A stretch of 64,000 nucleotides of DNA. Source: Dehalococcoidia bacterium (GTDB lineage: Bacteria > Chloroflexota > Dehalococcoidia > DSTF01 > JACRBR01). The stretch lies in the NCBI GenBank assembly GCA_035650575.1, contig DASRHM010000114.1, positions 2,265 through 66,264 on the forward strand, written 5' to 3'. The notes beneath the pieces are model-generated. The model ran no database searches. It had not been told where the DNA came from and saw nothing but the letters and a program-made list of their open reading frames with translations. This document shows, piece by piece, positions 7,713-45,000 of the stretch (positions within the stretch are counted from its first letter, which is position 1; the number at the start of each line of letters is the position of its first letter). A program made the position numbers and the translations under genes.

Positions 7713-8317
7713 CAGCCCATGTGCGGCGAGATGTAGACGATGAGGAAGATGAAGATCCATACCGCGTCGACGAAGTGCCAGTAGAGCGCGACGTTCGTCA
7801 CGGCGAGATTGCGGCGCTCGGTGAAGTGTCCGGCCCAGGCGCGCACCTGCGTCAGCGCGTTCATCAGGATGCCGACGAAGAGGTGCGCCCCGTGGAAGGC
7901 GGTGATGACGACGAAGAGCGACGCGTACGCATTGGTGTTCGCGCGGAACTCGAGCCGCGTGTACTCATGGATCTGCAGCGCGAGGAAGATGACGCCCATG
8001 GTCAGCGCGATGCCGAAGCCCGCGCGCACCGCCATCTGGTTGCCACGGCGGATGCCCATATCGGCCCAGGCCATTGGGATGCTGCTCGACAGCAGAATGA
8101 CGGTGAGGATGCTCGGGACGAGCAGCTCCGGCGCCTTCAGGCCGCCCTGCGGCCACTCCGTCGCGCCCGACCGCAGATAGAGGTAACTCGAGAACAGCAG
8201 GGCGAAGAAGATGCCCTCGGTGAGGATGACGAGCCACATGCCCCACGTGGCGGGCGCGCGCGAGCCGGAGACGAAGCGGGGATAGGGCGGCGTGCCGGCG
8301 TAGTCGCGGACCGTCAT
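7712..8317 (-). CDS. ctaE: Cytochrome c oxidase subunit III
   Basis: MTVRDYAG start after an AGGAGGAGG RBS; HLFVGILMNALT...ALYWHFVDAVWIFIFLIVY signature of COX3; overlaps the ctaD stop. Confidence 0.8.
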   Translation of the reverse strand: MTVRDYAGTPPYPRFVSGSRAPATWGMWLVILTEGIFFALLFSSYLYLRSGATEWPQGGLKAPELLVPSILTVILLSSSIPMAWADMGIRRGNQMAVRAGFGIALTMGVIFLALQIHEYTRLEFRANTNAYASLFVVITAFHGAHLFVGILMNALTQVRAWAGHFTERRNLAVTNVALYWHFVDAVWIFIFLIVYISPHMG

Positions 8318-10209
8318 GCGAGCGCCTCCTCCTGCTCGTCCTCCGTAGGCCACATCCAGAGCGCCATGGCGGCGAGTCCGACGCCGGCGGCGATGCCGAT
8401 GACGATCATCGAGTCGACGAGGATGCCGAGGAACAGTCCGAGCATGGCCAGCGCGAGCGTCACGGGCAGGAACGAGGCCTTCGGCATCGTCAGCAGCTCC
8501 TCCGTCTTCGCGTCGAGCACCGTCGTGCCGAGCGACTCGCGGCGGCCGCCGTGGGGCTGCGACAGCCCGGGGTCCCAGTCCGGGCGCCGGGCGTCCGGGC
8601 CGTCCCAGAGCGGGTCGCGGCTGCGCACGACCGGGATGTCACGGAAGTTGTAGGGCTGGGGCGGCGACGTCGTCGCCCACTCGAGGCTGCTCGCGTTCCA
8701 GGGGTTCTCGCCGGCCTCTTCGCCGGTGAAGAGGATGCTCTGCACGGCGTTCCAGACGAACACGAGCACGCCGAGCCCGAGGATGAATGCGCCGACCGTC
8801 GAGATCATGTTCAGCGACTCGAGCCCGAGGCCGGACTGGTAGGTGTAGACGCGACGCGGCATGCCGAGCATGCCCATGATGTGCATCGGGAAGAACGTGA
8901 GGTTGAAGCCGATGAAGATGAGCGAGAAGTTGAGGATGCCGAGCTTCTCATCGAGCAGGCGGCCGGTCATCTTCGGCAGCCAGTAGTAGAGGCCCGCGAA
9001 GATCGGGAAGACGACGCCGCCGACGAGCACGTAGTGGAAGTGCGCGACGATGAAGTAGCTGTCGGTGACCTGCCAGTCGAACGGCACGGCCGAGACCATG
9101 ACGCCGGTGAAGCCGCCGATCATGAAGTCGACGATGAACGCCAGGGCGAACAGGAAGGACGTGCGCCAGAGCGGGTTGCCCTTCCAGACCGTCGCGATCC
9201 AGGCGAAGAACTGCACGCCGCTGGGGATGACGATCGCCATGCCGGCGGCGCTGAAGAAGCTCAGCGAAATCAACGGCAGGCCGGTGGCGAACATGTGGTG
9301 CACCCAGACGCCGAAGCTGATGAAGCCGATGCTCACGGAGGCGAGGACGAGCAGCAGGTAGCCGACCACGCGCGTGCGGGCGAAGGTGGGGATCACCGTG
9401 GAGATCACGCCGACCGCCGGGAGGAACATGATGTAGACCTCCGGGTGCCCGAAAACCCAGAACAGGTGCTGCCAGAGCAGCGGGTTTCCGCCGTTGTCCG
9501 GGTCGAAGAAGTGCGTGCCCCACTGGCGGTCCATCTCCAGCATCGACGCGCCGAGCGTGAGCGGCGGCAGCGCGAAGATGATGGCGAACGAGGTCACCAG
9601 GATCGCCCAGCAGAACAGCGGCATGCGGTTGATCGACATGCCCGGGGCGCGCAGCTTGAAGATCGTGGTGATGAAGTTGACGGCGCCGGCGGTCGTCGAG
9701 ACGCCGAGGAAGATCATGCCGAGCGCCCAGAAGTCGAGGTTGTCGCCGGGGGAATATTTCGGCCCGGTCATCGGCACGTAGGCGAACCAGCCGCCGTCGG
9801 GGGCGTTGCCGGTAAGGAAACTGGCGAACAGGAAGATCCCCGAGAAGGCGTAGACCCAGTAGCTGAAGGCGTTGAGGCGGGGGAACGCCATGTCGCGCGT
9901 CCCGAGCATCAACGGCACCAGGTAGTTGCCGAATCCGCCGACGAGCAGCGGCGTCGCGAAGAGGAATATCATCACCGTGCCGTGCATCGTGAAGATCTGG
10001 TTGTAGTGCTCGGGGCTGACGAAGTCGTTCTCCGGCACGGCGAGCTGCGTGCGGATCACCAGCGAGCCGGCGCCCGCGACGAGGAAGAACACGAACGCGG
10101 TGCCGATGTACCGGAGGCCCAGCTCCTTGTGGTCCACCGTCGCGAAAACGCGGGTGAGGATGTTCGGGGCTTCCCAGGTGCGGTCGAGACGACCGGCGGC
10201 GGTGGCCAT
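8314..10209 (-). CDS. ctaD: Cytochrome c oxidase subunit I with C-terminal 2-TM extension (fused subunit IV-like tail)
   Basis: Classic COX1 sequence (HKELGLRYIGTAFVFFLVAG..., WVHHMFATG, HFHYVLVGG). 631 aa, with an extra C-terminal hydrophobic segment VTLALAMLGLFLGILVDSMIVIGIAAGVGLAAMALWMW. Confidence 0.9.
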   Translation of the reverse strand: MATAAGRLDRTWEAPNILTRVFATVDHKELGLRYIGTAFVFFLVAGAGSLVIRTQLAVPENDFVSPEHYNQIFTMHGTVMIFLFATPLLVGGFGNYLVPLMLGTRDMAFPRLNAFSYWVYAFSGIFLFASFLTGNAPDGGWFAYVPMTGPKYSPGDNLDFWALGMIFLGVSTTAGAVNFITTIFKLRAPGMSINRMPLFCWAILVTSFAIIFALPPLTLGASMLEMDRQWGTHFFDPDNGGNPLLWQHLFWVFGHPEVYIMFLPAVGVISTVIPTFARTRVVGYLLLVLASVSIGFISFGVWVHHMFATGLPLISLSFFSAAGMAIVIPSGVQFFAWIATVWKGNPLWRTSFLFALAFIVDFMIGGFTGVMVSAVPFDWQVTDSYFIVAHFHYVLVGGVVFPIFAGLYYWLPKMTGRLLDEKLGILNFSLIFIGFNLTFFPMHIMGMLGMPRRVYTYQSGLGLESLNMISTVGAFILGLGVLVFVWNAVQSILFTGEEAGENPWNASSLEWATTSPPQPYNFRDIPVVRSRDPLWDGPDARRPDWDPGLSQPHGGRRESLGTTVLDAKTEELLTMPKASFLPVTLALAMLGLFLGILVDSMIVIGIAAGVGLAAMALWMWPTEDEQEEALA

Positions 10210-27418: not shown

Positions 27419-28204
27419 CTATGCGTTGCGGATGCTCATCCCGCCGTCGACGACGAGGTACGCGCCGGTGATGAAGCTCGCCGCCGGCAAGACGAGGCTG
27501 AGTGTCGCGTGCGCGACCTCCTCCGGCTCGCCGTAGCGCTTCAGGGCGACGCGCCGCTTCGCGTAGATGGTCTTGTGCTCCTCCGGGATCGGCGCCGTCA
27601 TCGCCGTTCGGATCGGGCCGGGGCAGACGGCGTTGACGTTGATCCCGCGCGGGCCCAGCTCGACCGCCATCGAGCGCGTGAGGCCGATGACGCCGTGCTT
27701 CGCGACGGTGTACGGGCTGCCGCCGCCGGTCGCGCCGAGCGCCTCCGTCGACGCGATGTTCACGACGCGCCCTTCGCCGTTGCGCGCGAGGTCGGCGGCG
27801 CACGCGCGGATCAGGCGCGCCTGCGCGGTGAGGTTCACGGCGAGCGTCAGCTCCCACGCCTTCTCCCACGCGTCATGGTCGATCGGCGCGGGGGCGGAGA
27901 GGCCGGCGTTGTTCACGAGGATGTCGACCGGCCCGACCTCGGCGCGGATGCGGTCGACCAGCGCCGGGATGGCGGCGCCGTCCGCGAGGTCCGCGGCGTA
28001 GGCGCGGGCACTGCCGCCCGCGGCGTTCACCTCGCCTGCGGCGGCCGTGACGCCCTCCGCGTTGCGGTCGATGAGCGCGAGGCGGGCGCCGGCATCGGCG
28101 AAGACGTAGGCGGTGGCGCGCCCCATGCCGCTGGCGGCGCCGGTGATGATGGCGACGCGGCCCTCGATCGACCGGCTGAGCTTGCTGAGCTTGGTGTTCG
28201 GCAT
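27419..28204 (-). CDS. SDR-family oxidoreductase (3-oxoacyl-ACP-reductase-like)
   Basis: GRVAIITGAASGMGRATA (TGxxxGxG), NNAG, S...YxxxK (PYTVAKHGV). Confidence 0.85.
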   Translation of the reverse strand: MPNTKLSKLSRSIEGRVAIITGAASGMGRATAYVFADAGARLALIDRNAEGVTAAAGEVNAAGGSARAYAADLADGAAIPALVDRIRAEVGPVDILVNNAGLSAPAPIDHDAWEKAWELTLAVNLTAQARLIRACAADLARNGEGRVVNIASTEALGATGGGSPYTVAKHGVIGLTRSMAVELGPRGINVNAVCPGPIRTAMTAPIPEEHKTIYAKRRVALKRYGEPEEVAHATLSLVLPAASFITGAYLVVDGGMSIRNA

Positions 28205-28230
28205 GCGGGAGGACTATAGAGCGCCGGCCC

Positions 28231-28369
28231 GCGGGCGGCCAGCGCCGGCGCTGCGATGGCGCCGGCCCTCCGGAGCGGGTGCGCGGGGGCGCCGTGCGTC
28301 GTACAGGCCTGGATGGAGATGGCTGTGGAGCGGGAGACGAGACTCGAACTCGCGACACTCTGCTTGGGA
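28231..28369. repeat. Left 139-bp direct repeat of the island (attL-like); 28325..28369 is a 45-nt copy of the 3' part (anticodon loop to CCA) of tRNA-Gly on the minus strand
   Basis: Ungapped alignment with 44831..44969 (offset exactly 16600 nt), 129/139 identical. The 5' half of the tRNA is absent here, so this is a displaced tRNA 3' fragment plus its 94-nt downstream flank. Confidence 0.85.
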
Positions 28370-28594
28370 ACAAGCTAGGGCTTCTGCAAGCTGCTCCAGA
28401 TTCGAAGTTGGCCCCGAAACCGATGCAAGCTGCACCTAATTGGGCGCACATCTCGCGGCCGGGTTCGGCACGCTGCCGAACGTCATGCTATCGCAGAAAA
28501 CGCTCAGCGGATCGCATCGTTTCTAGCGCAATCACCGCCTGACTTAGGCGCCGCTAACACGCGCGGCCCGACACATCAATGTGCATCGCAGCAG

Positions 28595-29503
28595 TCAGGG
28601 CCGAACCGCGACGGGGGTCGCCTCGACGGCGAGCGCGTTAAACCCGTCCCGTGACCAGAACACGCGCCCGGCACCGAGCCGCTGCTCCAGCGCGTCGTAA
28701 AGACGCTCCGCTGCGCTGATGTCCTGCCAGTCTCCCCAGCCGAGTTCTGCAAAACGCGCTGGGAGCGGGCGGTGACGCGTGCGCTTGCCGTTGGAGCCAT
28801 CGCCGAAGAACGTATCGACGATCACGCGATCTGCGGCGGATTCCAGTGCATCGGCGAAACGCTCGAGCGAGTGAGGAAGCGTCGGACTGACGGCGGCCTG
28901 CACATGGATCCCCAGCGCACGAGCCTGGCGCATGGTCGTGAGCCGACGTTCGACGCTTGGGCATGTAGGTGTGAGCGCTCGCCGCACGGCATCATCATCT
29001 GTCTCAACGGTCATCGAGAGCCAGGCGAATGGCATCTCGGCGAGAAGGTCGAAGTCCTCCTCGACGAAGGGAGAGCGGGTCTGAACCACGAGCACACCGA
29101 TCGGGTGCTCGTGGAACACCTCAAGGATAGAGCGCGTGATCCGGAGCTTCGCCTCCGCTGGCTGATAGGGATCCGTCGCGGAGCTCATGAAGACGCGCAC
29201 GGACTTTGGGTCGCTGAGGACTCCAAGGTCTCGGCGAAGCGCCTCGGCGGCGTTCGCCTTGGCGCGCAGCCACTTCCCCCAGGGCTTGCCAGCGTAGAGG
29301 CCGATCGGCGACTCCGCGACGTAGCAGTAGACGCCGCAGCCGCCGTCGCCGAACGCGCATCCCATGTACGGGTTCAGGGTATGCGTGAACGCGTACAGGA
29401 ACCCGCTTGCGGGCGTGAGCACGCGGCTCGTGCGAACCAGTTCGGGCTGGAGCAACGCTGGACCTCGACAATGACCCATAGCACGGATGTTCTTCTTGGT
29501 CAA
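28595..29503 (-). CDS. Putative radical-SAM-related Fe-S protein of the SplB/COG1533 (DNA-photolyase-like) family
   Basis: Cys cluster MGCAFGDGGCGVYCYV near the N-terminus, followed by a TIM-barrel-like series (VRVFMSSATDPYQP, LSMTVETDD, VQAAVSPTLP) resembling SPL-family proteins. Cys spacing C-x6-C-x3-C is atypical. Confidence 0.45.
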   Translation of the reverse strand: MTKKNIRAMGHCRGPALLQPELVRTSRVLTPASGFLYAFTHTLNPYMGCAFGDGGCGVYCYVAESPIGLYAGKPWGKWLRAKANAAEALRRDLGVLSDPKSVRVFMSSATDPYQPAEAKLRITRSILEVFHEHPIGVLVVQTRSPFVEEDFDLLAEMPFAWLSMTVETDDDAVRRALTPTCPSVERRLTTMRQARALGIHVQAAVSPTLPHSLERFADALESAADRVIVDTFFGDGSNGKRTRHRPLPARFAELGWGDWQDISAAERLYDALEQRLGAGRVFWSRDGFNALAVEATPVAVRP

Positions 29504-30139
29504 GGGCCTAGCAGCGGCCGTACGTCAGGCCCAACGCTCACCGCCTAACCTCGACGCGCCGGCTCCCCTATTCGAGAGCACGTATGGTAATTGCCGGCCA
29601 GGCGCATCGCGGCGGTCATGTCCTCTACGTGGATGTCGGTCAGCTCGAATTCACGCATGTGCTCACGGAGTTCTCGTGGACGGAGGTCCGCGTCTTCGAT
29701 GATCAGGTGGTCGCAGCGCTTCAACATCTCCGAGAGGACGCTGGCTCGGGCCGAACTGATTAGCGCAGATGGGTCGAATCGTCGCACGGGCAAGTAGAGT
29801 TCGCTCCCAATCCGCGCGCCATCAGCGACCAGAGTCAGCGCGGCGAAGTAGCTGGAAAGCGCTGGCTGTGCCCAACGTGCCCGTCGGCCACCTGGTCCAC
29901 GTATTTGGTGGGGGACTCGCGTTCCTCCGCACGGAGCGGATCGAACAGCAGATCCGGCTCAGCGATACGAATGAGTCGCGCCTCGCATCGCTTCTCTTGT
30001 TGCTGCTGTACCAACGAAACGCCTTGCACAGGACCTGGTAGAGTTCCTTCAGAACGATGGATCCCGCGACGTGACTGAAGAGGCGGCCGGGTTATCTCTC
30101 GGCTGAGTCTGTCGCCACAGTGGCAGGGACTACGCATGA

Positions 30140-33100
30140 TCACGCTTTTCCAAAGACGTCCTGGAGTTCCCTCAGCTGGTCGTGCCAAGTCGGCGGCGTC
30201 GTGAATCGCAAAGCTACGACCCGGTAACCCGCATCCTCCAACGCCGTGCGAGCAGCTGCATCCTTTCGCTGCTGGTGTACTGTGTGGTGCGCCGCGCCAT
30301 CGATGAACACGCAGATTCCAGGGGCGCCACTGTCTCGCTCGTAATAGAAGTCGGGCTGGGCGGCGATGCGCGAATCGGGCCTATTCTGTGCATTGTCAGG
30401 AAGGCGATGGCCGTACTCATACAGGTGGTCAAGGAAAGAAGCTTCTGCACGTGATCGCGGATCCAGCAATCCTCTGAGCCGCTGGTATTGGTCGTCGCGC
30501 GACCGACCCTTCGATTCCACCACGAGACTCGATGCCAATCTCAGCAGATGATCACGAATAAGCCGACGGTCGATCAGCCGTTGTTCGATCTGGTTGGAGT
30601 AACTTAGGAGGCACTCGTAGCAGCCCACGACGCACTGAAAGTCCCTCGGGGCCAGTTCTTGGCCAGTCGCAGCATCATAGTGACAGACCGACAGCGCGCG
30701 TCTGGCGACTGCAGCGAGAGCCCCGGCCTCCTCAACGATGCGCTCGAACACACCGGTTCCACCTTCCGCAGCTTCCCAGAACAGGATGCCGCGACGCTCA
30801 CCGCTGCCGATGAGCTCCGCCTCGATTTCCTGCTGTTCCACCTGGTATTCGAGCTCGATGCCGTGCCTGAGAGCGTAGAGGAGCGTCGTCAAGAACGGGT
30901 CGTCTCGATTGGGGGCGGGGTAATACAAGAGCAGGTTGCGGTGGTCGAACACGAACGGCTTGAGCCCCGCGATCGGTGCCGGCAGATCAGGCTCGTCGTC
31001 ATCAGCGACGACGGCGTCGGCCTCCATCTTCCGCCACCGTCCGGTCGATGGCTCAATTTGATACCCCTTGCGGTCACTTTGACGCCGGCCGTGGTTGATT
31101 CGCCAGAGCGTGGCAGCCTGGCCGTAAATCAGATGAGCAAGCTCATCCCCCTCGGAGCTGCGTATCGATGCAGGGCGGCGCCGCGCAGGCGGCACGAAGC
31201 AGAAATGGGTGGACGTGGCGTACCCATTGCGGAGCCGCTCCTCCTCGTCTGAAGAGATCCGGTCAGTAATGCGCGCCCTCATTGTCGGCTGCTCCAGAAG
31301 CTTCTCTTCCAGCCGCGACGCGCTGGCATCGAGCCGGCCACCGCAGCCATCGCACAACTCGTTGTCGACGCGCTCGTCGGTGTGGATGTAACCACAGTTG
31401 ATGCAGATACGGCCTCTGCGCAGCCTTCCTTCCAGGCCCGTGACAGGCACGATCGCCGCATCAACACGATGCTTCCGCCCTTCGTGATAGACGATGTTCA
31501 TCGGGGCGAACTCGGTCAGGCCAATAAACCGCGGACGGTCGATCGATTTCGCCGTGTCTCGAACACTGACCATCACGCGCACGGGAAGCCGAGGGAAGTT
31601 GTAGCCGGGAAGGAATCCCTCAGCGCCCAAATAGCGGTAAGGGTAGAAATCGGATTCCTGCAAACGCGACTCGCTCTTGCTCGCGCTCGCGTTGAGCAAC
31701 AGGTCGAGTTCGCGCCTTGCCTCACGCTCCCGTTGCTCAGCGCGTTCCTTCTCGCGCTGGTCTGGCCTCGGCGCATCGATGATCGCCCGGGCTCCGTCGC
31801 GCATGTCTTCCGCCGACCGGTACAGTTCGCGCCAGCGTCCGAGAGCGGTCTCCAGCGCCGATGGCGCCTCGCGAATTGTGCGTGCGAGCCAGTCCTCGCT
31901 GAACCACCATGCTTGCCGGATCTCGGGGGCTCGCTCAATCACGGCCCTCGCAGCGGCAAGAGCTTTGTCATACCACTGATCTGTACGTGCAATGTCGTCC
32001 TTTTTTTGGAGCGGATATTGCCGTGTGCGATCGGTCAGGTCGAGGACGTCGGCCATACTCTGGCCGAAGGAGATGCTCGTCTCCGAAAGCCACGTCGCCT
32101 GGAGGTGCGCCTGCACTAACTCCGGATTCTGGAGGTCCATGCGCGCCGGAGCGACGGCGCCAGCAATCATCCGCTCACGTTGGCGGAAGAAGTACTGATC
32201 GTGCACGTTGCCTTGCGCGGCGAACGTCAGAATCAAGGCGGGCCGGCCGCCACGTCCAGCTCGTCCGCTGCGCTGTGCGTAGTTGGCAGGTGTGGGCGGC
32301 ACGTTGCGGAGATGAACGCTGTTGAGGTCTCTGATGTCGACACCGAGCTCCATGGTCGGTGAACAGAACAGGGCCGGTAGTTCTCCCTTGCGGAAGCGCT
32401 CCTCACGGTCGATGCGGTCATCCACATCGACCTGACCCGTGTGTTCCCGTCCAAGCATCCCGCGCAGGTCACGGGCGCCCACGCGATACAACTCGCGAAA
32501 GTACGAGTTCGGTTCGCGCGCGCCCACCTCACGGCGAAGGTACAGCGCTCGCGAGCGGACTCTGTCAGGGGGTGGCGCCACGCCCGTGCCGGGCAGCCAG
32601 CGAATCGCGCTCGCAAGCACCCGAACGCCGCGTTCCGTCCCCCGTCGCGACACAACGCTGAGAATGTGGCCCCGAAGGTTCTCCACGATGCCCCGTATGA
32701 GCTGCTCGCCCTCCTGCGTAGACAGGTCGTGGTCCAGATCCCACGTGCGCTTGGAACGCAGATATCGCCCGATCGCCGAGCGCGACGTCATCCGGGTGTA
32801 CCGCCGTCGCCACTCAGTCTCATCAGGTTCAACACCGGGTAACAGCACGAGCGACTGGCGGATCAGCTGGTCTCGCGGGTCGAGCGCCCAGGGATCGCGC
32901 AGCCCCTGACTCTCCGTCGCCCGCATCGTGAGACGGCGAGTCGCCTGCTCCGTGAGGAGGTCAGCCTCGATCGCGAGCTGCGTCCGGAGGTGATCGAGCA
33001 CGGCTCCAAGGACCTCTTCTCGCCGACCCGGTGGGGCGCCCCCGATTCCGGGCAGCCGTTGCCAACGGGCGTCGTCGGCGGCGAGCTCGCGCAGGCCGTC

Positions 33101-35296
33101 ATAGTCGATGCGCAGCAGCCCGGCCTGTTCGAGATTCGGCTGTGCAACCCGCCAGCCGCGACTGAGGTCCTCGATCGCACGATATTGCAGCAGCTCGATC
33201 ATCACGTCGCGCAGGCGCTGATATCCCGGGCTTCCGAGGGGAAGGTCTTCCTTTAGGAAGTCCGCGGGCCGGAAGTCCAGCTCCTCGAATATGGCCGGTC
33301 CGAGCTCGCCGAAATCGAGACTTCCGCGCTTCTGTACCGCGCTTGCGATCGCCGATCGCAACTGCGCGACGGTCACGAAGTCATTGAGATGTCCGGCCTG
33401 GAGCGACGCGTCCTGGCGGTTGTCGGTAAAGCTGAGGATCTTGCACGCTTCAGGGTCCACGTCACCAGCACGACGCATGTTTGCGACGGCGGCATGCACT
33501 ACGACAGAGGTGGCGGTCGAGCGGCCGATCTGGCTCAGCGACGAGAGCTTGTAGAAGTCCCTGTTGCGGAAGTCATATGCCGCCCGGCAGCGGAGACAGA
33601 GCATCAGCGGCCGCGGCTGGAACCAGCCGTGCACGCCTTCGCCGGCGTGGCCGTCGCGGAGCGTACCGTCCGCCGACGCTGTGAACGCGCGTGGCACGTG
33701 GGGCAGGTAGTTCTCCTTGATGCGCGGACCGGATTTGCGCTCCACGAACCAGAAGTCGGGCAGCTCATCCTCGTCGTTGCCCCAGAGCCGGTCGTCGGGC
33801 GTGCCGGGCTCGGTGCTGAAGAAGCCGCCCTCGCCCGGAATGTCTTCGTCAGACGCACCCACGATCGGCGATCGCGGCACGAGCCGCGCGCCGTCGCCCT
33901 CTCCTATTAGCGAACACAGGTAGTACTCCTGGCCACATTCGCGGCAGAACACCAGCGGGAACAGTACGCGCTCCTCGTCGAGCTTGTACTGCGCCTCCAT
34001 CGTGAGCGGACGGCGATCGGGCGGCTCCAGCGTCGTGTAGACGCTGCTGCCGGACGACAGGAACTGGTGCAGCCGGAAGGGAAAGACTCGCTGATCCTCA
34101 GCGATGCGCGCCGCATTCCCCACCTCGAGCACGGCGCGTAGCCGCTGCCGGCACGTGTCCTCGCCGACGCCGGATTGCGACGCCAGCCGTCGCACCGCCT
34201 CGTCGAAGGTCACCGGCGGTTGCCGGACCAGCCTCCCCTCCTCGACCGTGAGGCCGAATGTCTCCTCCGCCCAGGCGGCCAACGGGTGATGCGTCACCTC
34301 GTCGACGCCGGCGCCGACGGGAGCGTCCGCAGGCACCATCGGCGGCGGCTGCATCTGGACCGCCGCCCGCAGCTCCTGGGGCGTCGCCGGTGCCGGGACC
34401 TGCGTCACGCGGCGGAGGGTCTCGTCGATGACATTGGCGGGCGGCACCTCGACGCCGAACAACCTCGACGCGACCTCGGCGATCGTGCGATGCCGCTCCT
34501 CGCGCGTGCCCTCGGTCGTGAGCGTCGCGCTGGTGCCGACCATCTGCAGATCGTGGCCGGCGCGCTGCTGGACGCGGCGCAGCAGCATCGCGACGTCAGC
34601 GCCCTGGCGTCCGCGATAGAAGTGCAGCTCGTCCATCACGAGGAATCGCAGGTCGCGTGTCGCCGTCTCAACCAGGGTGCGCTCCCAGGGCCGGACGAGG
34701 AAGTACTCGAGCATCACGTAGTTGGTGAGGAGGATGTGCGGCGGATCCGCGAGGATTCGGTCGCGATCTGCCTCCTTGGTCTGACCTGTGTATTGATCGA
34801 ATCGCACGGAGCAATCGGCGAAATTGAGGTCGCGGTACTCCTGCAGCGCCTTGAGCTGGCTGTTGATGAGCGCGTTCATCGGATAGACGATGATCGCGCG
34901 CACGGAGTGCCGCTCCGGCTGCGCGCGCATGATCTCGTCGAAGATCGGCACGAGGTACGTCAGGCTCTTGCCGGACCCGGTGCCCGTGGTGACGACGTAC
35001 GGCTCGCCGCGCTTCGCGATCTCCAGCGCCTGCTTCTGGTGCCGGTGCAGCCGGATGCCCTCGCCGAAGAAGCGCGCCGTCTCGGGCACCAGCGTGCCGT
35101 CCTTCGCCAGCTCGCCGAGCGTCTCGTCCTGCTCGTAGGCCGGGTTGAGCTGCAGTACCGCCTCCGGCCAGAGCACGCCCTTGGCCAGCTCCTCGCGCAC
35201 GAAGTCGTTGATGCGGTCGTCGAGCACGCGCACGAAGCTCTCGACGTACCGCCGGTACTCGTCGACTACGCCATCACGAAGCTTGAAGACGTCCAT
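30140..35296 (-). CDS. Giant (1718 aa) defense helicase: DEAD/DEAH-box helicase core + DUF1998-like Cys4 zinc module + C-terminal DUF559/Vsr-like PD-(D/E)xK nuclease domain (fused DrmA/DrmB-like protein)
   Basis: Helicase motif I VVTTGTGSGKSLTY and motif II VMDELHFY; multiple CxxC pairs (CRECGQEYYLC, ICINCGYIH...CDGCGG, VGCYECLLSYSNQ) typical of DUF1998/MrfA C-termini; extreme C-terminus ICVFIDGAAHHTVHQQRKDAAARTALEDAGYRVVALRF matches the DUF559 consensus. ATG at 35296 follows an AGGGACGGG RBS, 15 nt after the DUF4411 stop. Confidence 0.85.
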   Translation of the reverse strand: MDVFKLRDGVVDEYRRYVESFVRVLDDRINDFVREELAKGVLWPEAVLQLNPAYEQDETLGELAKDGTLVPETARFFGEGIRLHRHQKQALEIAKRGEPYVVTTGTGSGKSLTYLVPIFDEIMRAQPERHSVRAIIVYPMNALINSQLKALQEYRDLNFADCSVRFDQYTGQTKEADRDRILADPPHILLTNYVMLEYFLVRPWERTLVETATRDLRFLVMDELHFYRGRQGADVAMLLRRVQQRAGHDLQMVGTSATLTTEGTREERHRTIAEVASRLFGVEVPPANVIDETLRRVTQVPAPATPQELRAAVQMQPPPMVPADAPVGAGVDEVTHHPLAAWAEETFGLTVEEGRLVRQPPVTFDEAVRRLASQSGVGEDTCRQRLRAVLEVGNAARIAEDQRVFPFRLHQFLSSGSSVYTTLEPPDRRPLTMEAQYKLDEERVLFPLVFCRECGQEYYLCSLIGEGDGARLVPRSPIVGASDEDIPGEGGFFSTEPGTPDDRLWGNDEDELPDFWFVERKSGPRIKENYLPHVPRAFTASADGTLRDGHAGEGVHGWFQPRPLMLCLRCRAAYDFRNRDFYKLSSLSQIGRSTATSVVVHAAVANMRRAGDVDPEACKILSFTDNRQDASLQAGHLNDFVTVAQLRSAIASAVQKRGSLDFGELGPAIFEELDFRPADFLKEDLPLGSPGYQRLRDVMIELLQYRAIEDLSRGWRVAQPNLEQAGLLRIDYDGLRELAADDARWQRLPGIGGAPPGRREEVLGAVLDHLRTQLAIEADLLTEQATRRLTMRATESQGLRDPWALDPRDQLIRQSLVLLPGVEPDETEWRRRYTRMTSRSAIGRYLRSKRTWDLDHDLSTQEGEQLIRGIVENLRGHILSVVSRRGTERGVRVLASAIRWLPGTGVAPPPDRVRSRALYLRREVGAREPNSYFRELYRVGARDLRGMLGREHTGQVDVDDRIDREERFRKGELPALFCSPTMELGVDIRDLNSVHLRNVPPTPANYAQRSGRAGRGGRPALILTFAAQGNVHDQYFFRQRERMIAGAVAPARMDLQNPELVQAHLQATWLSETSISFGQSMADVLDLTDRTRQYPLQKKDDIARTDQWYDKALAAARAVIERAPEIRQAWWFSEDWLARTIREAPSALETALGRWRELYRSAEDMRDGARAIIDAPRPDQREKERAEQREREARRELDLLLNASASKSESRLQESDFYPYRYLGAEGFLPGYNFPRLPVRVMVSVRDTAKSIDRPRFIGLTEFAPMNIVYHEGRKHRVDAAIVPVTGLEGRLRRGRICINCGYIHTDERVDNELCDGCGGRLDASASRLEEKLLEQPTMRARITDRISSDEEERLRNGYATSTHFCFVPPARRRPASIRSSEGDELAHLIYGQAATLWRINHGRRQSDRKGYQIEPSTGRWRKMEADAVVADDDEPDLPAPIAGLKPFVFDHRNLLLYYPAPNRDDPFLTTLLYALRHGIELEYQVEQQEIEAELIGSGERRGILFWEAAEGGTGVFERIVEEAGALAAVARRALSVCHYDAATGQELAPRDFQCVVGCYECLLSYSNQIEQRLIDRRLIRDHLLRLASSLVVESKGRSRDDQYQRLRGLLDPRSRAEASFLDHLYEYGHRLPDNAQNRPDSRIAAQPDFYYERDSGAPGICVFIDGAAHHTVHQQRKDAAARTALEDAGYRVVALRFTTPPTWHDQLRELQDVFGKA

Positions 35297-35313
35297 GCCC
35301 GTCCCTCGTCGCC

Positions 35314-35784
35314 CTAGATAGACCAGCCCTGCTCCCGGATCACGTCGACCAGTCGAACGCAACGGACGCCGAGAGCCGTACAAACGTCCGGGATGTTCGG
35401 CTTGGCGGTGTTCCCAGTAGGCATTTCGTCGGTCACAACCGCGCAAGCGCGCTGCACCGCAAGCGCGATCACGAATGGATCCGCTGCGGATCGATTCGTG
35501 CGGGTGTCTACGAGTCGCGGGTAGTCCCTCATGATATCTCGAACGATCGGTTGAACCTCATCGTCAATAGGGACGAATAGAGCGGGACGCTCACGCGCCC
35601 ACTGATAAAGCTCGTCGTCTTTTCTCTCGATCTCGACGCGAACCTCATCGGAGGCGATCAACACGGCGTTTTGGACCAGCCCATCTATCCTCCCCCAGAC
35701 TGTTGGGAATATGTCTGGAGGATAATGCTTCCGCCAGGCATTGATCAGCATGCTAGAGTCACCGCTGTACGCAGGATTGGGCAT
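35314..35784 (-). CDS. DUF4411-family protein (PIN-like putative nuclease/effector)
   Basis: 156 aa; its start ATG overlaps the ImmA-gene stop (ATGA). DUF4411 assignment made from memory of the family; it pairs with HTH-ImmA genes in defense islands. Confidence 0.55.
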   Translation of the reverse strand: MPNPAYSGDSSMLINAWRKHYPPDIFPTVWGRIDGLVQNAVLIASDEVRVEIERKDDELYQWARERPALFVPIDDEVQPIVRDIMRDYPRLVDTRTNRSAADPFVIALAVQRACAVVTDEMPTGNTAKPNIPDVCTALGVRCVRLVDVIREQGWSI

Positions 35785-36962
35785 CAGGACGCAGCCCTCA
35801 TGAGATCGCTCTCGATGCGCGACAAGTGCTTGAGCCGGACCCCCAAGAGCCCGGCGACGTCACTCGCCGTGATGCGATCCTGGGAGTAGCTGGCGAGCAC
35901 CAGACGCACGAACGCCGGGCCAGCGCTCGCGAGTGCCATCCGGTGTGGCGGAGCGAAACCGCCTTCGCGGGACGGCTGACGCAAGTATTCCTCGTGGAAC
36001 TCGCGTAGCTTAGCCTCGAAGTATGCGTTCGTAATGACGTCTAGCGTCCGGAGACGACGGAGAATCACTTCGCGACTGACCCCGAAGGTCTCGGCTAGCT
36101 GGCGCAGATCGGTGTCGCTCCAGCTGGAGACGGTGGCCCCCGACGATATCAACGGAGTGCCGAGCAGTCGATCGCGCGGCACGAGAGCAGCCGCAGCGAC
36201 GCGGTTGCACAACTGCTCTATCCTCTGGTCATCCGTCCCGCCGGTAGGCAGCTCTTCAGGCGAGACGTTGCAGAGTCCGAATTGCCGAAGTGCGAGGTGC
36301 GTCAGCTCATGGAAGAGGCTGAAGATGCGACCGGCAATTGCATCCTTGATGTTCAGAACTATGGCGGGAAGGCGTTCGGAGTAGATGCAGAAAGCCCGCA
36401 TTTCCTTGAGTTCAACGTCAGTGGCTTGAAAGACTAGAACTCCGGCGGTCTCGAACTTTGCGCGCAACGCGTTTAACGTTTCGTAGCCAGCAGCCCAGCG
36501 CTCCTGTTCTGCGCCGGTTAGACCGACGAACTCCCGGAGCCGGACACCAAGGTTCTCGGAATCCTCATGGTCATCCGCCGTCAGGACGAAAGCCGGCGCC
36601 TCCCCCTCCATCGCCTCGAGCAGATCCTGCGCGATCTCACGTCGGTCTTGAGCGAGCCGCACTTGGAAGCGCAGCTCTGGCGATTCGACCGGCGTGTCTC
36701 CGGGTAGTCTTCTGAAGTCACGAAGTGCCTGAAACTCGGTCGGCGGCTCGGGCAAGTAGAAGACGGCAAGTGGCCGCTTGTACGCTGTGCCGAGCTTCCG
36801 AAGTTGCGCGATGGTAGGACGGCCTTCGCCGCGCTCCCAGCCCTCTAGGCGGTCGGGCTTAACCGGGATCTTCTTGGCGGCCGTCGCTACGTCAAGGCCC
36901 GCGCTTCCTCTGGCCCAGGCGAGCACCGCAGGTTCAACTTGAGCTTCAACGCGAACGGTCAT
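35784..36962 (-). CDS. XRE-type HTH fused to ImmA/IrrE-family zinc metallopeptidase
   Basis: N-terminal HTH (LDVATAAKKIPVKPDRLEGWERGEGRPTIAQLRKLGTAYKRP) and HEXXH motif SLFHELTHLAL in the ImmA/IrrE (COG2856) context. ATG at 36962 preferred over the TTG at 36995. Confidence 0.8.
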   Translation of the reverse strand: MTVRVEAQVEPAVLAWARGSAGLDVATAAKKIPVKPDRLEGWERGEGRPTIAQLRKLGTAYKRPLAVFYLPEPPTEFQALRDFRRLPGDTPVESPELRFQVRLAQDRREIAQDLLEAMEGEAPAFVLTADDHEDSENLGVRLREFVGLTGAEQERWAAGYETLNALRAKFETAGVLVFQATDVELKEMRAFCIYSERLPAIVLNIKDAIAGRIFSLFHELTHLALRQFGLCNVSPEELPTGGTDDQRIEQLCNRVAAAALVPRDRLLGTPLISSGATVSSWSDTDLRQLAETFGVSREVILRRLRTLDVITNAYFEAKLREFHEEYLRQPSREGGFAPPHRMALASAGPAFVRLVLASYSQDRITASDVAGLLGVRLKHLSRIESDLMRAAS

Positions 36963-37031
36963 AGTGCCCAAAAGCCTACACGGCACCCCCAGCAACGGCG
37001 ATGGACGCGCCGCAACTGCGAGAGCGCCTCC

Positions 37032-37817
37032 TCACGCCGTCTCGCTCGGCAGCGGTTTCCCCGCGGCCAGGAGATCATACGACTCCAGCACCAACCGCAT
37101 CGTCCGGTACTCCCCCCAGCGCGCGATCTCCTTGTTCTTCAGCCCCCGGAACGATTCACTCGGCGGCTGGGCGTCGAGGATCCATTCCAGGTCGGGGCCG
37201 TCGAGCTGGTAGAGGTGGGCGATGATGGCGTCGATCTCGCAGCGGAGCTGGAGCCGGCGGCCCTCGTCCCAGGCGTACGGCGGCCGTCGTAGCCGAGGTC
37301 GCGGGCGAACGGCGCCAGGTCGTCGGCCGTGTACGTCAGCTCCAGCACGCGTGGTACCAGCAGTTCCGCGTACGTGCAGCCGACCGGTGACCGTTCGAGG
37401 AAGTACTGCGGCGGCAACACGGGCAACTGCTTCACGATGAAGAAGTTCATGTTGACGCCGCCGACCGAGAAGCGGGCCGCCCAGTCGAGCACGATGGAGT
37501 CAAGGTTTGCGAGAAGCAACGACGCCGCGGCGGCGACTGGATCAATGCGAAGCAGCGTCGTTGAGTCGCTAAAGCCGGATACGCCCGAGCCGGCGACTAT
37601 CGTCGTGCGCTCGTCAGTCGCGCGTGTGATCTTCCTGAATGCCTGCAGCCATCCATGGCCAAGCTGTCCGACGAGCGGCGCCTTGTTGCTCACGGCTGTC
37701 GCCTCGATGACTGCGACGATTGCGGTGCGCTCATCGGTCGCGCGCGCGATATCGCGGAATGCGAGAAGCCAACCACAATACCACTGTTCCCGAGCGCCAC
37801 TGCGCCGGTCATTGCCA
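37032..37817 (-). pseudogene. Out-of-frame C-terminal remnants of the PglX/DrmMI-like methyltransferase (two frames)
   Basis: The frame open from the SSR to about 37139 encodes ...NMNFFIVKQLPVLPP...LELTYTADDLAPFARDLGYDG. After a 1-nt deletion in a C run (about 37283) the next frame encodes PPYAWDEGRRLQLRCEIDAIIAHLYQLDGPDLEWILD...YGEYRTMRLVLESYDLLAAGKPLPSETA*, the conserved PglX-type C-terminus. Confidence 0.7.
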
Positions 37818-40800
37818 TCACGAACGTCCTCTCGTCTGTGGACCGCGCGATCGAGCGAAACGCCACTTGCCAGCCGCGAGTTGAGCGAATACTCTCTCTC
37901 TCTCTCTCTCTCTCTGCGTCAGCGCACTAGCAGGGGCAAGCCGCGCGGCCACCTCCTCCGCCGGCACCCAGTAGCGCGGGATGACGAGGCGGCGCGGGTC
38001 GCGCTTCTCGGCGGGCGTCAGCTCGCGGGCGTTGCCCTTCTTGCGGTCGTCCTCGCCGACGCCGTCGAACGTGGCGAAGCGGTGGTCGTACTGGTGGAAG
38101 AGCTTCGCCTCGTAGAGCGGCAGGTACGTGCGGCCGTCGCCGTGGCGGAAGACGTTGCCCTCCAGCGCGAAGCCTTCGGCGCGCAGCTCCGCCGCCGTGC
38201 GGAAGAGATGCGAGTCGTTGGACATGTCGAAGAGGCGCTGGAAGCTCACGCCCCACGAGTTCTCCTCGCCCTCCCCATCGCGCGCCTCCCGCACGAAGAC
38301 GCCGGCGCGGCGGTAGAGCTTCGCGGCGATCTCGGCGTCGCGGCGGCTGCGGAACGTGGGGGCCGTGCGCGTGTTCGGGTTGAACAGCGCGAAGTCGGCG
38401 GGCGCCAGCGTGAAGCGGCGCTCCGGGTCGCGCACGTGGGCGACGTCTGTGCAGAAGAACGCGAACTCGGCGGGAGGCGCGTCGCCGTCGGGCGCGCCGC
38501 GCAGGGTCAGGAGGCAGAACTTGATGCGGCTATCGATGCCGGGGAAGATTCCCTCTCGGTTCTCGAAGTCGAACAGGCTGGCCAGTCGCCCGGAGCCGGC
38601 GAAGCTCGCGAACAGCTCCTTCGTCGTGTCGTCGGTCGCGACGCCGCTCGGGCAGATCACGCCGCTCCGGCCGTTGATATGCAGCAACGCGTGGTCTGCT
38701 TCCACGAAGACGGCGTAGAGGTTCACATCGCCGCGCCCGCCCAGGGGGAATCTGCCGGACTGGCGCAGGAACGCGCTCGCTTTCTCCGCAGTGCGCTGCG
38801 CTTCGTTGAACTCCGCGAAGAGCTGCTGGTCGGCTGCCTCCGTCGAGCGTGCGAGCGCCTCGATCATGCGCTTGCGCGAGGCGGCATTCGGCGCCTGTGC
38901 GATGTCCCGCGAGCGGCTCGCGAAGAACTCCTGCTGCGAGAGCTTCACGCGCTCCCACGGCGGGTTCCCCAGCACGACGTCAAACCCGCTCTTCAGCTGC
39001 ATGATGTCGGGGAATTCGAGCGGCCAGTGGAAGAAGCGCTGTTTCTCGCTGAAGGCGACCGCTTCGCCCACGAGCTGGGCGTCGGCGGCGTTCGGCTGCA
39101 GCAGGTAGCGCCGCACCGTGTCGGTCGTCGGGACGCGCGCGGCGCCGCGCAGCGGCGCGAAGAACGCATAGGTCCAGAGGTCGCAGGCCGTCTTCCACTG
39201 CCACCACGCCGTCCCGCGGCCGCGGATGCGCTCGTACAGCTGCTCCTTGCGGTGGACGTCGTCCGGCGTGCGCTCGTCGGTCGCGGCCAGCCTGCTGAAG
39301 GCGTCGGCGAGCTGGCCCTGGCCGTCGATGCCGCTCACCTCGACCAAAGCCGTCTGCCCGGTGCGCTCCTCGCGGTTGCGCTTGCGGATGGCCGTCGCGG
39401 CAGCCTTGTCGTCGCCGGTGACCGGCTTGTACGCGTCGTCCGGGATCCCCTCTTCGAGCACCTTCAGGTCGAACACGCCGACCAGGCTGTCGCCGCATTT
39501 GATGTGGTGGTCGAGGAAGTTCAGCGGTAGGCCGGCGTTGTGGCCCTCGATCCAGAGCGCGACCTTGCAGAGGTCGACGGCCAGCGGGTTCTTGTCGACA
39601 GCGTAGATGCAACTGCGGATGACGTCGCGCAGCGCCTCGCGGTACTTCTCCGGCGGCGGCTCTTCCTCTTCGACGCGGGTCTTCGCCAGTTCGGTCGCGA
39701 TCTTGCGCGCGGCCGCGAGGAGGAAGTGACCCGAACCCGCCGCCGGGTCGCACACCCGCAGCGCCAGCAGCGCCGCCTCGCGCTCGGCCTTCGTCTTCGC
39801 GCCGCGCAGCCGCTCCTCCATCACCGGCACGAGCGCGCTCTCGATGAGCTCGCGCACCAGCTCGGGCGGCGTGTAGTAGCTGCCGGTCTGCTTGCGCTCG
39901 CTGCCGGTGACCAGCGCGAACTGGCGGCGCTGCAGGTCCACCTTCGGGTGGAAGTCGAGCAGGCTTTCGTAGACGGAGCCGAACTCCTCGACATCGAGTG
40001 CCGCGTAGTTCACGCGCCGGCGCGGGCCTCGGCGGCGGCGCCGGCCCGACCCCTGCTCGTCGACGAACGTGGACAGGTGCCGGATAGCGCGCAGGAGGTC
40101 GGCGTTCGTGCAGACGGCCGGCTCCAGATCGCGGCAGGCGGGCTCGCCGAACAGCTCGCCGTCGAGCGCGCGCATGTCGAGCTTCCGCGCCACGTCGTCG
40201 TCGCGGAACATGCGGAACGTCTGCCGCAGCGAGATCCACAGGTCAGCGTGCGTATCGCTCGCGAAGTGCCGCTCGGCGCGGCCGCGCAGCCGTCCGATGC
40301 TGTAGTAGTCGGTGTAGATTTGATGCCGCTCCGTCGCAGCGACGTCCGGAGGGAAGATCAGCCGGCGCTCCTCGGCGACCATGAGGAACAGGAAGCGATA
40401 CACGAGACGCAGGAGCTGCCGGTAGTACGCCGTCGCATCGAGCGCGCCCGAGGACAGGCGCTCGCGCAGCGCCTCGCTCTCGGAATGGGCGAGGAAGGCG
40501 GTGCCGAGGACCTGGAGCGCCTGCTCGACGCCGTCGCGCAGCTTCTCGCGGACGCGGCCGCCCTGCTCGATGCCCTGCTGGTAGTAGCGTTCGAGCAGGC
40601 AGTCGCGCGGGTCGTCGCCGCGGGGGAACCGTGATGCGTGCAGGAGCCGGAAGAGCAGCGCGAACTCGCTGAAGAGGTTCGCGCCGATCATCGTCTCCAG
40701 GTCGAACTCGACGTACGTCGGCTTCGTGAAGATGTTGCTATCGCGCAGGAGCCGGAGCCGGCGCCCGTTCGTGACGATGCCCCAGAGCGCGTCGGAGCGG

Positions 40801-41248
40801 TTCAGGAACTCCTGCACGACGGCGTGCGACGTGCGGCGCGCGCTGCCGGCGCGGCGGTCCAACTCTTCGTCGAAGGCAACGACGTGCACGGGCGCCGCGT
40901 GCTCGCTCTCGCCCATGCGGTGCGAGATGAAGTAGCTCTGTCCGCCGGCCTCCGCCGAGGCGCGCTGCAAGACGAGCTGATAGCCGAGGCACTCGGACAG
41001 CAGGGGCACCACCCACGCCTCTCGCGTGATCGTCGTGGCGCTCTCGCGCGTGCGTTCAAGTCGGCGCTGGAAGGCGTCCCAGTAGAGCCGCGCGTCCGAG
41101 AAGGCCGACTGGATCTCGTCAGCCGGCCGGCGGTTGCCGTCGAGGCCGAAATCCGCCGCGCGCTGCCCCTCGGCGTCGCCGGCGGCGATGCTGTCGAGGA
41201 GGTCCGGCGGGAACAGCCCGCCCTCGAGCGTCACTGACGTCCACGCCA

Positions 41249-41249
<1 letters not shown>
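37818..41249 (-). CDS. PglX/DrmMI-like N6-adenine DNA methyltransferase (type IIG/IIL-like), 1143-aa reading frame truncated after an in-frame (AG)12 tract
   Basis: Motif I VCDPAAGSGHFLLAAARK, motif IV VLGNPPWERV, and N-terminal PglX-like region. Start ATG 41249..41247 overlaps the SNF2 stop (TGATG). Reading frame ends 24 codons after the SSR-encoded QRERERER. Confidence 0.8.
37892..37915. repeat. (CT)12/(AG)12 dinucleotide microsatellite inside the methyltransferase coding frame
   Basis: Perfect 24-nt dinucleotide run, encoding RERERER on the minus strand; a candidate slipped-strand phase-variation site. Confidence 0.9.
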
Positions 41250-44115
<2,866 letters not shown>

Positions 44116-44830
44116 GTCTCGTCGCGGCCCAGACTCGATCTCGGTCAGGCCGAGTCATCCGCCTACCGGGCGCCAGGCTGAACTCTGGTGCGTGGGCGCC
44201 GACCGAGTCGCTAAAGGGAAGAGGCTGCGTCGATGACCTTACGCATGTCTGAGCCAAACCGTCGGCAGGCCCGGCGACGAGGTGTCCGTCTATGGATATG
44301 ACTTTCCTCACACGTTGTGGTCGTCATCTATAGCCTAGGGCAGCTGACCGGACGCGACGGGAATATCGCCCCAGCGACGACCGATGCTGCAGGCAACTTC
44401 GTGATCGCTGGCGGCGTGCCGCGCGGGTTGTGCCCCGCCGCGTATATCATTCAGGCCGTGGCCATCGATTCCGGCTGGATGGCATCGGCTTCCTTCACAG
44501 TCACTCCATAACCACGTGGTCACGTCGCGCGGCATGGCTCCGTCCATCTCACGACCGCGCGTACCATTCCGGCTCAACCTCATAGCGCGGCCCGCCGGCC
44601 GATACCGGCAGCCGCTCTAACCTCCGGCGCGAGACGACCGAGTCGTCGCGGAAGGCGATCGTGCGGTCAGGCTGCGCGGCGTCGGGCAGCTCGGCCGACG
44701 GCGACGGGTCCACGGTACGCGCGGGTGTACGGGAATGAGCTAATTGCAGATGCCGGTCGAGAAGTTGTCGAGGTCGCAGACCCCGGTGGGCGGGCGGCGG
44801 CATCGGCGAAGACATAGGCATGGCGCGCGG

Positions 44831-44969
44831 CGGGCGGCCAGCATCGGCGCTGCGATGGCGCCGGCCCTCCGGAGCGCGTGCGCGGCGGCGCCGGGCGTGG
44901 TACAGGCGTGGGTGGAGGTGGCTGTGGAGCGGGAGACGAGACTCGAACTCGCGACCCTCTGCTTGGGAA
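44831..44969. repeat. Right 139-bp direct repeat of the island (attR-like), covering tRNA-Gly nt 32-76 plus the 94 nt downstream of the tRNA
   Basis: Pairs ungapped with 28231..28369 (10 mismatches). Confidence 0.85.
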
Positions 44970-45000
44970 GCAGATGCTCTACCGGCTGAGCTACTCCCGC
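44925..45000 (-). tRNA. tRNA-Gly (anticodon CCC)
   Basis: Reverse strand GCGGGAGTAGCTCAGCCGGTAGAGCATCTGCTTCCCAAGCAGAGGGTCGCGAGTTCGAGTCTCGTCTCCCGCTCCA; cloverleaf with 7-bp acceptor stem, TTCGAGT T-loop, encoded CCA, and anticodon loop CTTCCCAAG. Confidence 0.9.

Follow-up and report, generated by a model that had tools for sequence, protein, structure and literature searches.

The question raised by this 64,000-nt stretch of DNA (contig DASRHM010000114.1; hereafter the window, to whose positions coordinates refer unless another locus is named) is what two genes, encoding a helix-turn-helix (HTH) ImmA/IrrE metallopeptidase and a DUF4411 protein, are doing inside a defence operon, between the genes of a DNA methyltransferase (MTase) and a giant helicase. 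Here we show that this system family repeatedly carries cargo at its MTase-helicase junction, and that the pair is an optional accessory cargo and not a core component of its host system. The pair is probably a RosmerTA-like two-gene toxin-antitoxin (TA) or abortive-infection (Abi) module lodged between the two genes. This reading builds on observed features, namely the domain identities of the two proteins, their intact catalytic residues, the tight coupling of their genes, the autonomy of the two genes as a unit and the use of the site as a cargo slot. In the order of transcription, the junction and its downstream neighbour are laid out as follows.

36963..37031, minus strand: 69-nt spacer from the MTase stop (TGA 37034-37032) to the ImmA ATG, upstream edge of the cargo insertion
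35784..36962, minus strand: HTH-ImmA/IrrE gene, 392 aa (ATG 36962, stop 35786-35784), predicted antitoxin and autorepressor
35314..35784, minus strand: DUF4411 gene, 156 aa, predicted VapC-like PIN nuclease toxin
35297..35313, minus strand: 17-nt spacer from the DUF4411 stop to the helicase ATG, with a GAGGGA Shine-Dalgarno-like motif
30140..35296, minus strand: DruE-like helicase gene, 1718 aa (ATG 35296), core gene of the host system and downstream neighbour of the pair

A first-pass annotation of this DNA had described an HTH-ImmA/IrrE protein carrying the motif SLFHELTHLAL, then DUF4411, then the 1718-aa helicase, and the open reading frames (ORFs) and coordinates stand, as do the domains, which Pfam bears out. 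Two of its details needed correction: the ImmA stop and the DUF4411 start form the junction TGATG with a single shared base (35784), in place of an ATGA overlap, and the spacer before the helicase measures 17 nt (35313-35297) and not 15. With the true MTase stop placed by mapping the C-terminal frame onto the intact orthologue of locus L004, the MTase-helicase junction of the window comes to 1735 nt, made up of 69 nt, the pair and 17 nt. A terminator scan of 35100-37900 gave terminator-like sites at chance level only, and none in the 17-nt spacer between pair and helicase. With the helicase starting 17 nt downstream and no terminator detected, some transcriptional coupling between the pair and the helicase is likely.

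The status of the pair within the host system was addressed with the helicase N-terminus as query against one genome of each species, which yielded 24 loci (L001-L024), mostly from Dehalococcoidia metagenome-assembled genomes (MAGs), with helicases 50-62% identical to that of the window. The MTase gene is followed by the helicase gene in all 24, as in the window, and an SNF2 helicase gene lies ahead of them in all 22 loci whose contig reaches there. None of these 24 orthologous SNF2-MTase-helicase systems encodes the HTH-ImmA/DUF4411 pair, which is thus no essential part of the system. The junction is empty in 13 loci, the distance from MTase stop to helicase start being -4 to 27 nt, a spacing which implies that the MTase and helicase genes are translationally coupled there. 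Other cargo fills the junction in 11 of the 24 loci, over 0.8-2.2 kb and always co-oriented with the operon. In three of them it consists of HicA, HicB and a 155-aa protein with a weak match to SecB (E 0.0098), which together may constitute a HicAB toxin-antitoxin-chaperone (TAC) module.

L001, 8671-9948: HicA, HicB and SecB-like cargo
L002, 894-2168: HicA, HicB and SecB-like cargo
L008, 8679-9950: HicA, HicB and SecB-like cargo

HicB and HicA are found in L003 and L005, with ParE too in L005, while the cargo of L007 (8257-10005) is one 582-aa OLD-type nuclease with AAA_15 and TOPRIM domains, whose stop overlaps the helicase start. L006 and L010 carry an unknown protein of 275-300 aa, accompanied in L006 by an insertion sequence, and L022-L024 carry further unknown proteins. 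In all 12 cargo loci the spacing is tight and the cargo has the orientation of the operon. One normally coupled junction in a widespread Chloroflexota defence system is thus an exchange site, occupied by TA/Abi cargo of at least seven kinds, all co-oriented, and the slot offers a natural experiment for telling whether toxins embedded in restriction-like systems serve as backup, as regulators or as mere passengers.

Loci that bear the pair in this same slot come from a metagenome scan, and represent four other metagenomic lineages (L033, L034, L036 and L026/L027). Identity between L033 and the window is 61-64% for SNF2, 64% for the MTase, 58% for ImmA, 60% for DUF4411 and 63% for the helicase, and the helicase N-termini of the pair-bearing L034 and L036 are 78% and 68% identical to that of the window. 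In L026 (174-3211) and L027 identity to the window is 74-77% for the MTase C-terminus and the pair but only 35% for the helicase N-terminus, so that the junction looks like a recombination breakpoint between modules of the system. In L073 the pair lies downstream of the helicase. The first-pass annotation had remarked that a position between MTase and helicase does not occur in canonical DISARM; this is correct for the textbook operon, but the junction is a recurrent slot which holds the same pair in the four lineages above. A grouping of the pair-bearing helicases into one clade was hinted at by a neighbour-joining (NJ) tree of 154 aa; the bootstrap with 267 aa, at 19%, does not support it.

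The pair also behaves as a unit away from this system. Homologues of the DUF4411 protein number 681 at E<=1e-3, and 87 loci with DUF4411 relatives were examined, 85 of which have room upstream for a partner gene. In 83 of these 85 the DUF4411 homologue is immediately preceded by an HTH-ImmA gene of ~390 aa, and of the 67 junctions that are complete, 43 are overlaps (by 4 nt in 25 cases and by 1 nt in 10) while the gap never exceeds 23 nt. The pairing, for which the first-pass annotation had suggested co-occurrence statistics, is therefore far beyond chance, and the flanks of pair homologues are enriched in helicase and DNA methyltransferase genes. Indeed, a Pfam census of 144 ORFs flanking homologues of the pair is led by DEAD, ResIII, N6_Mtase, Eco57I, Helicase_C and HsdM_N. 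The settings are varied: the pair sits between valyl-tRNA synthetase (ValRS) and shikimate dehydrogenase genes in L031, adjoins Fic and HNH genes in L032, comes after the genes of a type IIG-like MTase and of a PLD-SNF2 protein in L028-L030, is present on Arthrobacter and Bradyrhizobium plasmids, and is represented in the phage protein families PHROG 2439 and 11126. Taken together, the census and these contexts indicate that the pair prefers restriction-like neighbourhoods without being confined to them. The pair is a self-contained mobile unit of many contexts.

In an NJ tree of concatenated ImmA and DUF4411 sequences, the window, L026, L033, L036, L035 and L028 form one clade (bootstrap 53%, or 82% with L032 included), which gives moderate support to a clade of MTase/helicase-associated pairs. 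The three independent assemblies L028, L029 and L030 (Logan SRR260742xx) all stop 170-240 nt past the DUF4411 stop; this common end may stem from heterogeneity among strains or from a repeat directly beyond the pair.

The first protein of the pair combines an XRE-type HTH with an ImmA/IrrE protease domain, and its main features map as follows.

36762-36923, minus strand: XRE HTH (Pfam HTH_3), residues 14-67, E 2.3e-8
36699..36719, minus strand: DFRRLPG motif, residues 82-88, in a predicted disordered linker from the HTH to the protease body
36051-36425, minus strand: Peptidase_M78 domain, residues 180-304, E 4.3e-11, 43.1 bits against a cut-off of 22
36297..36311, minus strand: HEXXH zinc site H218-E219-L-T-H222 within SLFHELTHLAL, with E249 as predicted third ligand

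In an alignment of 61 HTH-ImmA sequences H218, H222 and E249 never vary, and conservation of E219 is at least 90%. The same alignment shows D82 and R84 of DFRRLPG to be invariant, and F83, R85, L86 and G88 to be at least 90% conserved. The AlphaFold2 (AF2) model (predicted local distance difference test score, pLDDT, 88) falls below 50 at residues 77-89, the sole long low-confidence linker of the protein, which makes DFRRLPG a candidate cleavage or regulatory site. The best matching PDB folds are IrrE (3dti), CapP (7t5t) and PprI bound to single-stranded DNA (ssDNA; 8sln). Only ~88 helical residues follow the protease domain, so that the GAF domain of IrrE and CapP is absent. Among PADLOC models the best match is RmrA PDLC03949, the RosmerTA antitoxin, at 1.6e-19 over residues 9-388; 12 further RmrA models match (13 in all), while the capP model reaches just 1.9e-6. 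The protein also matches PHROG 2439 (E 1.8e-44).

The second protein matches PF14367 (DUF4411) over its full length, with an E-value of 5.7e-39 and 133.9 bits against the Pfam cut-off of 23.5, covering profile positions 1-158 of 159; the profile search bears out the domain call of the first-pass annotation for the 156-aa protein. A weak Pfam PIN match is also present (E 9e-4). Residues D9, E47, D93, D102, E120 and D133 are invariant in an alignment of 68 DUF4411 sequences, and the acidic active-site tetrad D9/E47/D102/E120 is intact in the window protein. The AF2 model (pLDDT 92) was compared with the PDB using Foldseek, and the top matches are VapC/PIN toxins (1y82, 3h87, 6a7v), with a probability of 1.0 and TM-scores of 0.55-0.67, at 9-19% sequence identity to solved VapCs. 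The protein therefore models as a VapC-like PIN nuclease. Searches of NCBIfam and IMG/VR gave nothing strong for DUF4411, with one viral locus from IMG/VR. The likeness to VapBC type II TA systems lies in the toxin, whose predicted fold and acidic active site are VapC-like; the antitoxin differs, being a 392-aa HTH-metalloprotease and not a small VapB.

A module of this composition has been predicted before. Matelska, Steczkiewicz & Ginalski 2017 (PMC5499597) proposed HTH-DUF955(ImmA/COG2856) with DUF4411.1 as a three-component TA system, with the same order of a fused HTH-M78 protease gene and, after it, a gene for a PIN-like protein that has DUF4411 as its single domain and conserves four acidic residues. 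Theirs was a prediction from gene neighbourhood, with no tie to a particular defence operon or insertion slot, and they found DUF4411.1 to be mostly monocistronic in Actinobacteria, whereas in the Chloroflexota and metagenomes studied here it is almost always paired. Zn-peptidase antitoxins (RmrA) are themselves established, including in pairing with PIN-like toxins (Millman 2022; Ernits 2023), and the partners of the ImmA node D25 of NetFlax include PIN-like toxins (Ernits 2023). RosmerTA shares with the window pair an antitoxin made of an N-terminal HTH and an ImmA-type Zn-peptidase, here matched over its full length by the PADLOC RmrA model, and the form of a tightly coupled two-gene module of defence islands and phages. 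It differs in its toxins, since validated RmrT proteins belong to other families, such as the membrane-depolarising RmrT of phage Kita. As the pair type was predicted in 2017 and a DISARM-type association was published in 2022, what is added here is the cargo-slot behaviour of the junction.

A working mechanism can be sketched by analogy with RosmerTA, ImmA/ImmR, IrrE/DdrO and CapP/CapH. In an uninfected cell the antitoxin would repress its own promoter through the HTH and keep the PIN nuclease inactive. A signal derived from phage or DNA damage, for example ssDNA, would switch the protease on, and the protease would then cut the antitoxin, plausibly at the conserved DFRRLPG linker. The PIN nuclease so freed would degrade RNA and arrest the cell, either as abortive infection or as a backup defence. 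Derepression could also lift helicase expression as a by-product, given the 17-nt spacing and the lack of a detected terminator.

Several points weigh against the RosmerTA-like assignment. A scan of 35100-37900 for sigma-70-like promoters found none, the 69-nt spacer included. A search for operators, in the form of inverted and direct repeats in the 69-nt spacer and in the regions upstream of related pairs, found none conserved, the sole repeat seen upstream of the L026 pair being the direct repeat GTGGCGCGAA. With no promoter or operator identified in the 69-nt spacer, a promoter belonging to the pair is an assumption. On the toxin side, no PADLOC RmrT model matches the DUF4411 protein at E<=1e-3, so that PADLOC would not call the pair RosmerTA. 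The literature searched holds no toxicity, neutralisation or phage assay of a DUF4411 pair, and the trigger, cleavage site and RNA target sketched above are ones that we infer purely from analogy. Finally, the slot arrangement is kept across ~40% sequence divergence (L033), which could reflect functional integration with the host system in place of simple hitch-hiking.

In the main alternative the pair is a regulator of the CapH-CapP type. The HTH-protease would then chiefly be a transcriptional switch activated by DNA damage or ssDNA that represses the helicase-nuclease and itself until infection, with the PIN protein as an accessory. Lau et al. 2022 gave this reading to a CapH-CapP fusion with a vapC-like gene beside the class 1 DISARM of Nocardia wallacei, and the likeness is real: an HTH repressor and an IrrE-like protease tied to a drmD-drmMI-helicase system, and a fusion with a PIN neighbour beside DISARM. 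CapP and ssDNA-bound PprI stand among the structural neighbours of HTH-ImmA, the helicase ATG is 17 nt past the pair with no terminator found, and four other metagenomic lineages keep the arrangement. We nevertheless consider this role unlikely. All 24 orthologous systems lack the pair, and the same slot houses HicAB, ParE and OLD modules, none of which is a regulator. The pair of L031 has no defence operon to control, and the RmrA match (1.6e-19) is far better than that of capP (1.9e-6). Moreover, CapH and CapP are encoded upstream and divergently, and CapP has a GAF domain, whereas the window pair is co-oriented inside the operon between drmMI and the helicase gene, lacks GAF and is dispensable in orthologues. 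The first-pass annotation had proposed either an accessory Abi effector pair or a sensor/regulator of the helicase: the accessory TA/Abi role agrees with the autonomy of the pair, its absence from the 24 orthologous systems and its nature as slot cargo, while a core sensor does not. The pair could also be a plain addiction module, a selfish TA in a permissive intergenic site which stabilises itself or the island and has no role in defence or in the host system. Its plasmid and housekeeping contexts would suit such an element, as would the mosaic composition of the island and the persistence of an intact pair beside frameshifted SNF2 and MTase genes, as expected of a TA that outlives its host system. 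Three observations make this quite improbable: the co-orientation and tight spacing in all 12 cargo loci, which argue for selection on co-expression, the enrichment of relatives beside helicase and MTase genes, and the protection from phage conferred experimentally by related Zn-peptidase TA systems (Millman 2022; Ernits 2023).

The frameshifts, three in two upstream genes, might also be taken to mean that the defence island is decaying and the pair is a non-functional remnant of it. This has next to no chance of being right, since neither ORF is truncated, no catalytic or family-invariant residue has been lost, and independent assemblies give the identical sequence. A bolder reading, which we put forward as speculation and hold to be quite improbable, would make the junction a dedicated co-transcribed 'cargo bay' for interchangeable suicide modules (HTH-ImmA/DUF4411, HicAB with or without the SecB-like protein, ParE, OLD). 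Such modules would be a fail-safe coupled to the primary defence, in the manner of PrrC and EcoprrI, and would fire once a phage inhibits the complex of helicase and MTase or once the microsatellite has switched the MTase OFF, with ImmA sensing ssDNA made by the helicase-nuclease. PrrC, an RNA-targeting suicide anticodon nuclease embedded in the EcoprrI type I restriction-modification (R-M) locus, is the classic case of an Abi backup within R-M; EcoprrI masks it physically, and its trigger is the Stp peptide of T4. The likeness to the window pair is that of a predicted nuclease inside a restriction-type operon.

The host itself is a three-gene SNF2-MTase-helicase system, a hybrid that is DISARM-class-1-like and Druantia-like. 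Its two upstream genes are the following.

41249..44115, minus strand: SNF2 helicase (DrmD/DpdE-like), PADLOC DpdE 7.5e-132 and DrmD 4.7e-63
37032..41435, minus strand: DrmMI-like N6-adenine MTase, PADLOC DrmMI 7.8e-79, upstream neighbour of the pair

The 1718-aa helicase has DEAD, Helicase_C and MZB/DUF1998 domains (Pfam), and its best PADLOC models are DruE3 (1.2e-90) and DruE1 (1.5e-83), DrmA matching partially at 8.9e-16. Comparison with DISARM, as drawn by the first-pass annotation, is thus apt only loosely, the helicase scoring 1e-90 for DruE against 9e-16 for DrmA. The combination of drmD and drmMI which marks class 1 DISARM is present, with both genes frameshifted in this genome; the separate drmA, drmB (DUF1998) and drmC (PLD) genes of that class are replaced by the single helicase with MZB/DUF1998, and no PLD/DrmC gene was found in the island. 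A DruE-type giant helicase with DUF1998, the mark of Druantia, is present as the 1718-aa protein, and no model of the Druantia partners (DruA-D, DruM/F/G, DruH) is the best match for any neighbouring gene. As for the label helicase-nuclease, the helicase half stands, and the nuclease half comes down to a DUF559 match below threshold at the C-terminus (E 0.013), where searches for a nuclease domain gave nothing else. The closest solved relatives of the helicase are PDB 9tu7 (2.5e-42) and 9wae (1.8e-26), recently deposited helicases of ~2000 aa. We presume both to be DruE-type, in which case they would help to model the host system.

The whole system lies on a genomic island with a low G+C content at third codon positions (GC3), bracketed by direct repeats.

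28199..44969, no strand: low-GC3 genomic island of ~16.6 kb, carrying the whole system
28199-28370 and 44798-44969: direct repeat of 172 nt, 85% identity, bracketing the island
44925-45000: tRNA-Gly(ccc), whose 3' part lies within the direct repeat

GC3 is 0.66-0.90 in the island against 0.91-0.97 in the flanking host genes, and no integrase was seen at the island. Within it the composition is mosaic, with GC3 of 0.90 for the MTase, 0.78 for SNF2 and the helicase, 0.71 for ImmA and 0.66 for DUF4411, the pair (0.66-0.71) thus standing apart from its neighbours (0.78-0.90). The gene order in transcription is SNF2, MTase, pair, helicase, a small ORF and a radical-SAM gene. The last two, at the distal end past the helicase, encode a 302-aa radical-SAM protein and an 82-aa ORF (28595-29503 and 29545-29793, respectively), and neither is conserved in the 24 related loci.

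SNF2 and the MTase are disrupted in this organism, unlike the pair and the helicase, which are both intact. Compared with the intact 1423-aa MTase of L004, the window MTase is in three frame pieces (41435..37818, 37882..37283 and 37277..37032). The first frame switch coincides with a microsatellite, the sole perfect short-period one in the 64-kb window.

37892..37915, minus strand: (AG)12 microsatellite on the MTase coding strand, (CT)12 on the plus strand

The second MTase switch is a 1-nt deletion at ~37282, and a 1-nt deletion at ~43605 divides the SNF2 gene between two frames near 43600-43618; both deletions are in short C runs. SNF2 is single-frame in 21 of the 22 loci among L001-L024 that have the gene on the contig; it is also split in L015, and only its 3' end is present in L005. 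Assembly error as the cause of the frameshifts was rejected, as two independent short-read assemblies agree with the window: a MEGAHIT contig from the European Nucleotide Archive (ENA; L113) differs from it over 20.8 kb by 13 single-nucleotide polymorphisms and 0 indels, while across the 37282 site a Logan contig (L114) is 100% identical.

Like the window MTase with its (AG)12, the MTase orthologues carry differing non-triplet repeats at one relative position of the gene, at the following positions in their own loci.

L004: (AGAC)18 at 9039
L010: (CAGA)29 at 8131
L006: (CAGA)13 at 7277
L011: (AGAC)15 and G12 at 8553 and 9045
L014: (AGCC)27 and G8 at 8503 and 9008
L009: (GACC)6 at 9078
L013: (ATCGG)24 at 8975
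L015: (AGCCGCG)21 at 8956
L020: (GACAG)10 at 6901
L001: (AGCC)8 at 7754
L019: C12 at 9092

A frame change occurs at the tract position in ~10 of the 24 orthologues. From their sequences, these lineage-specific MTase tracts in Chloroflexota MAGs look like the signature of a contingency locus, that is, of phase variation resembling a phasevarion.

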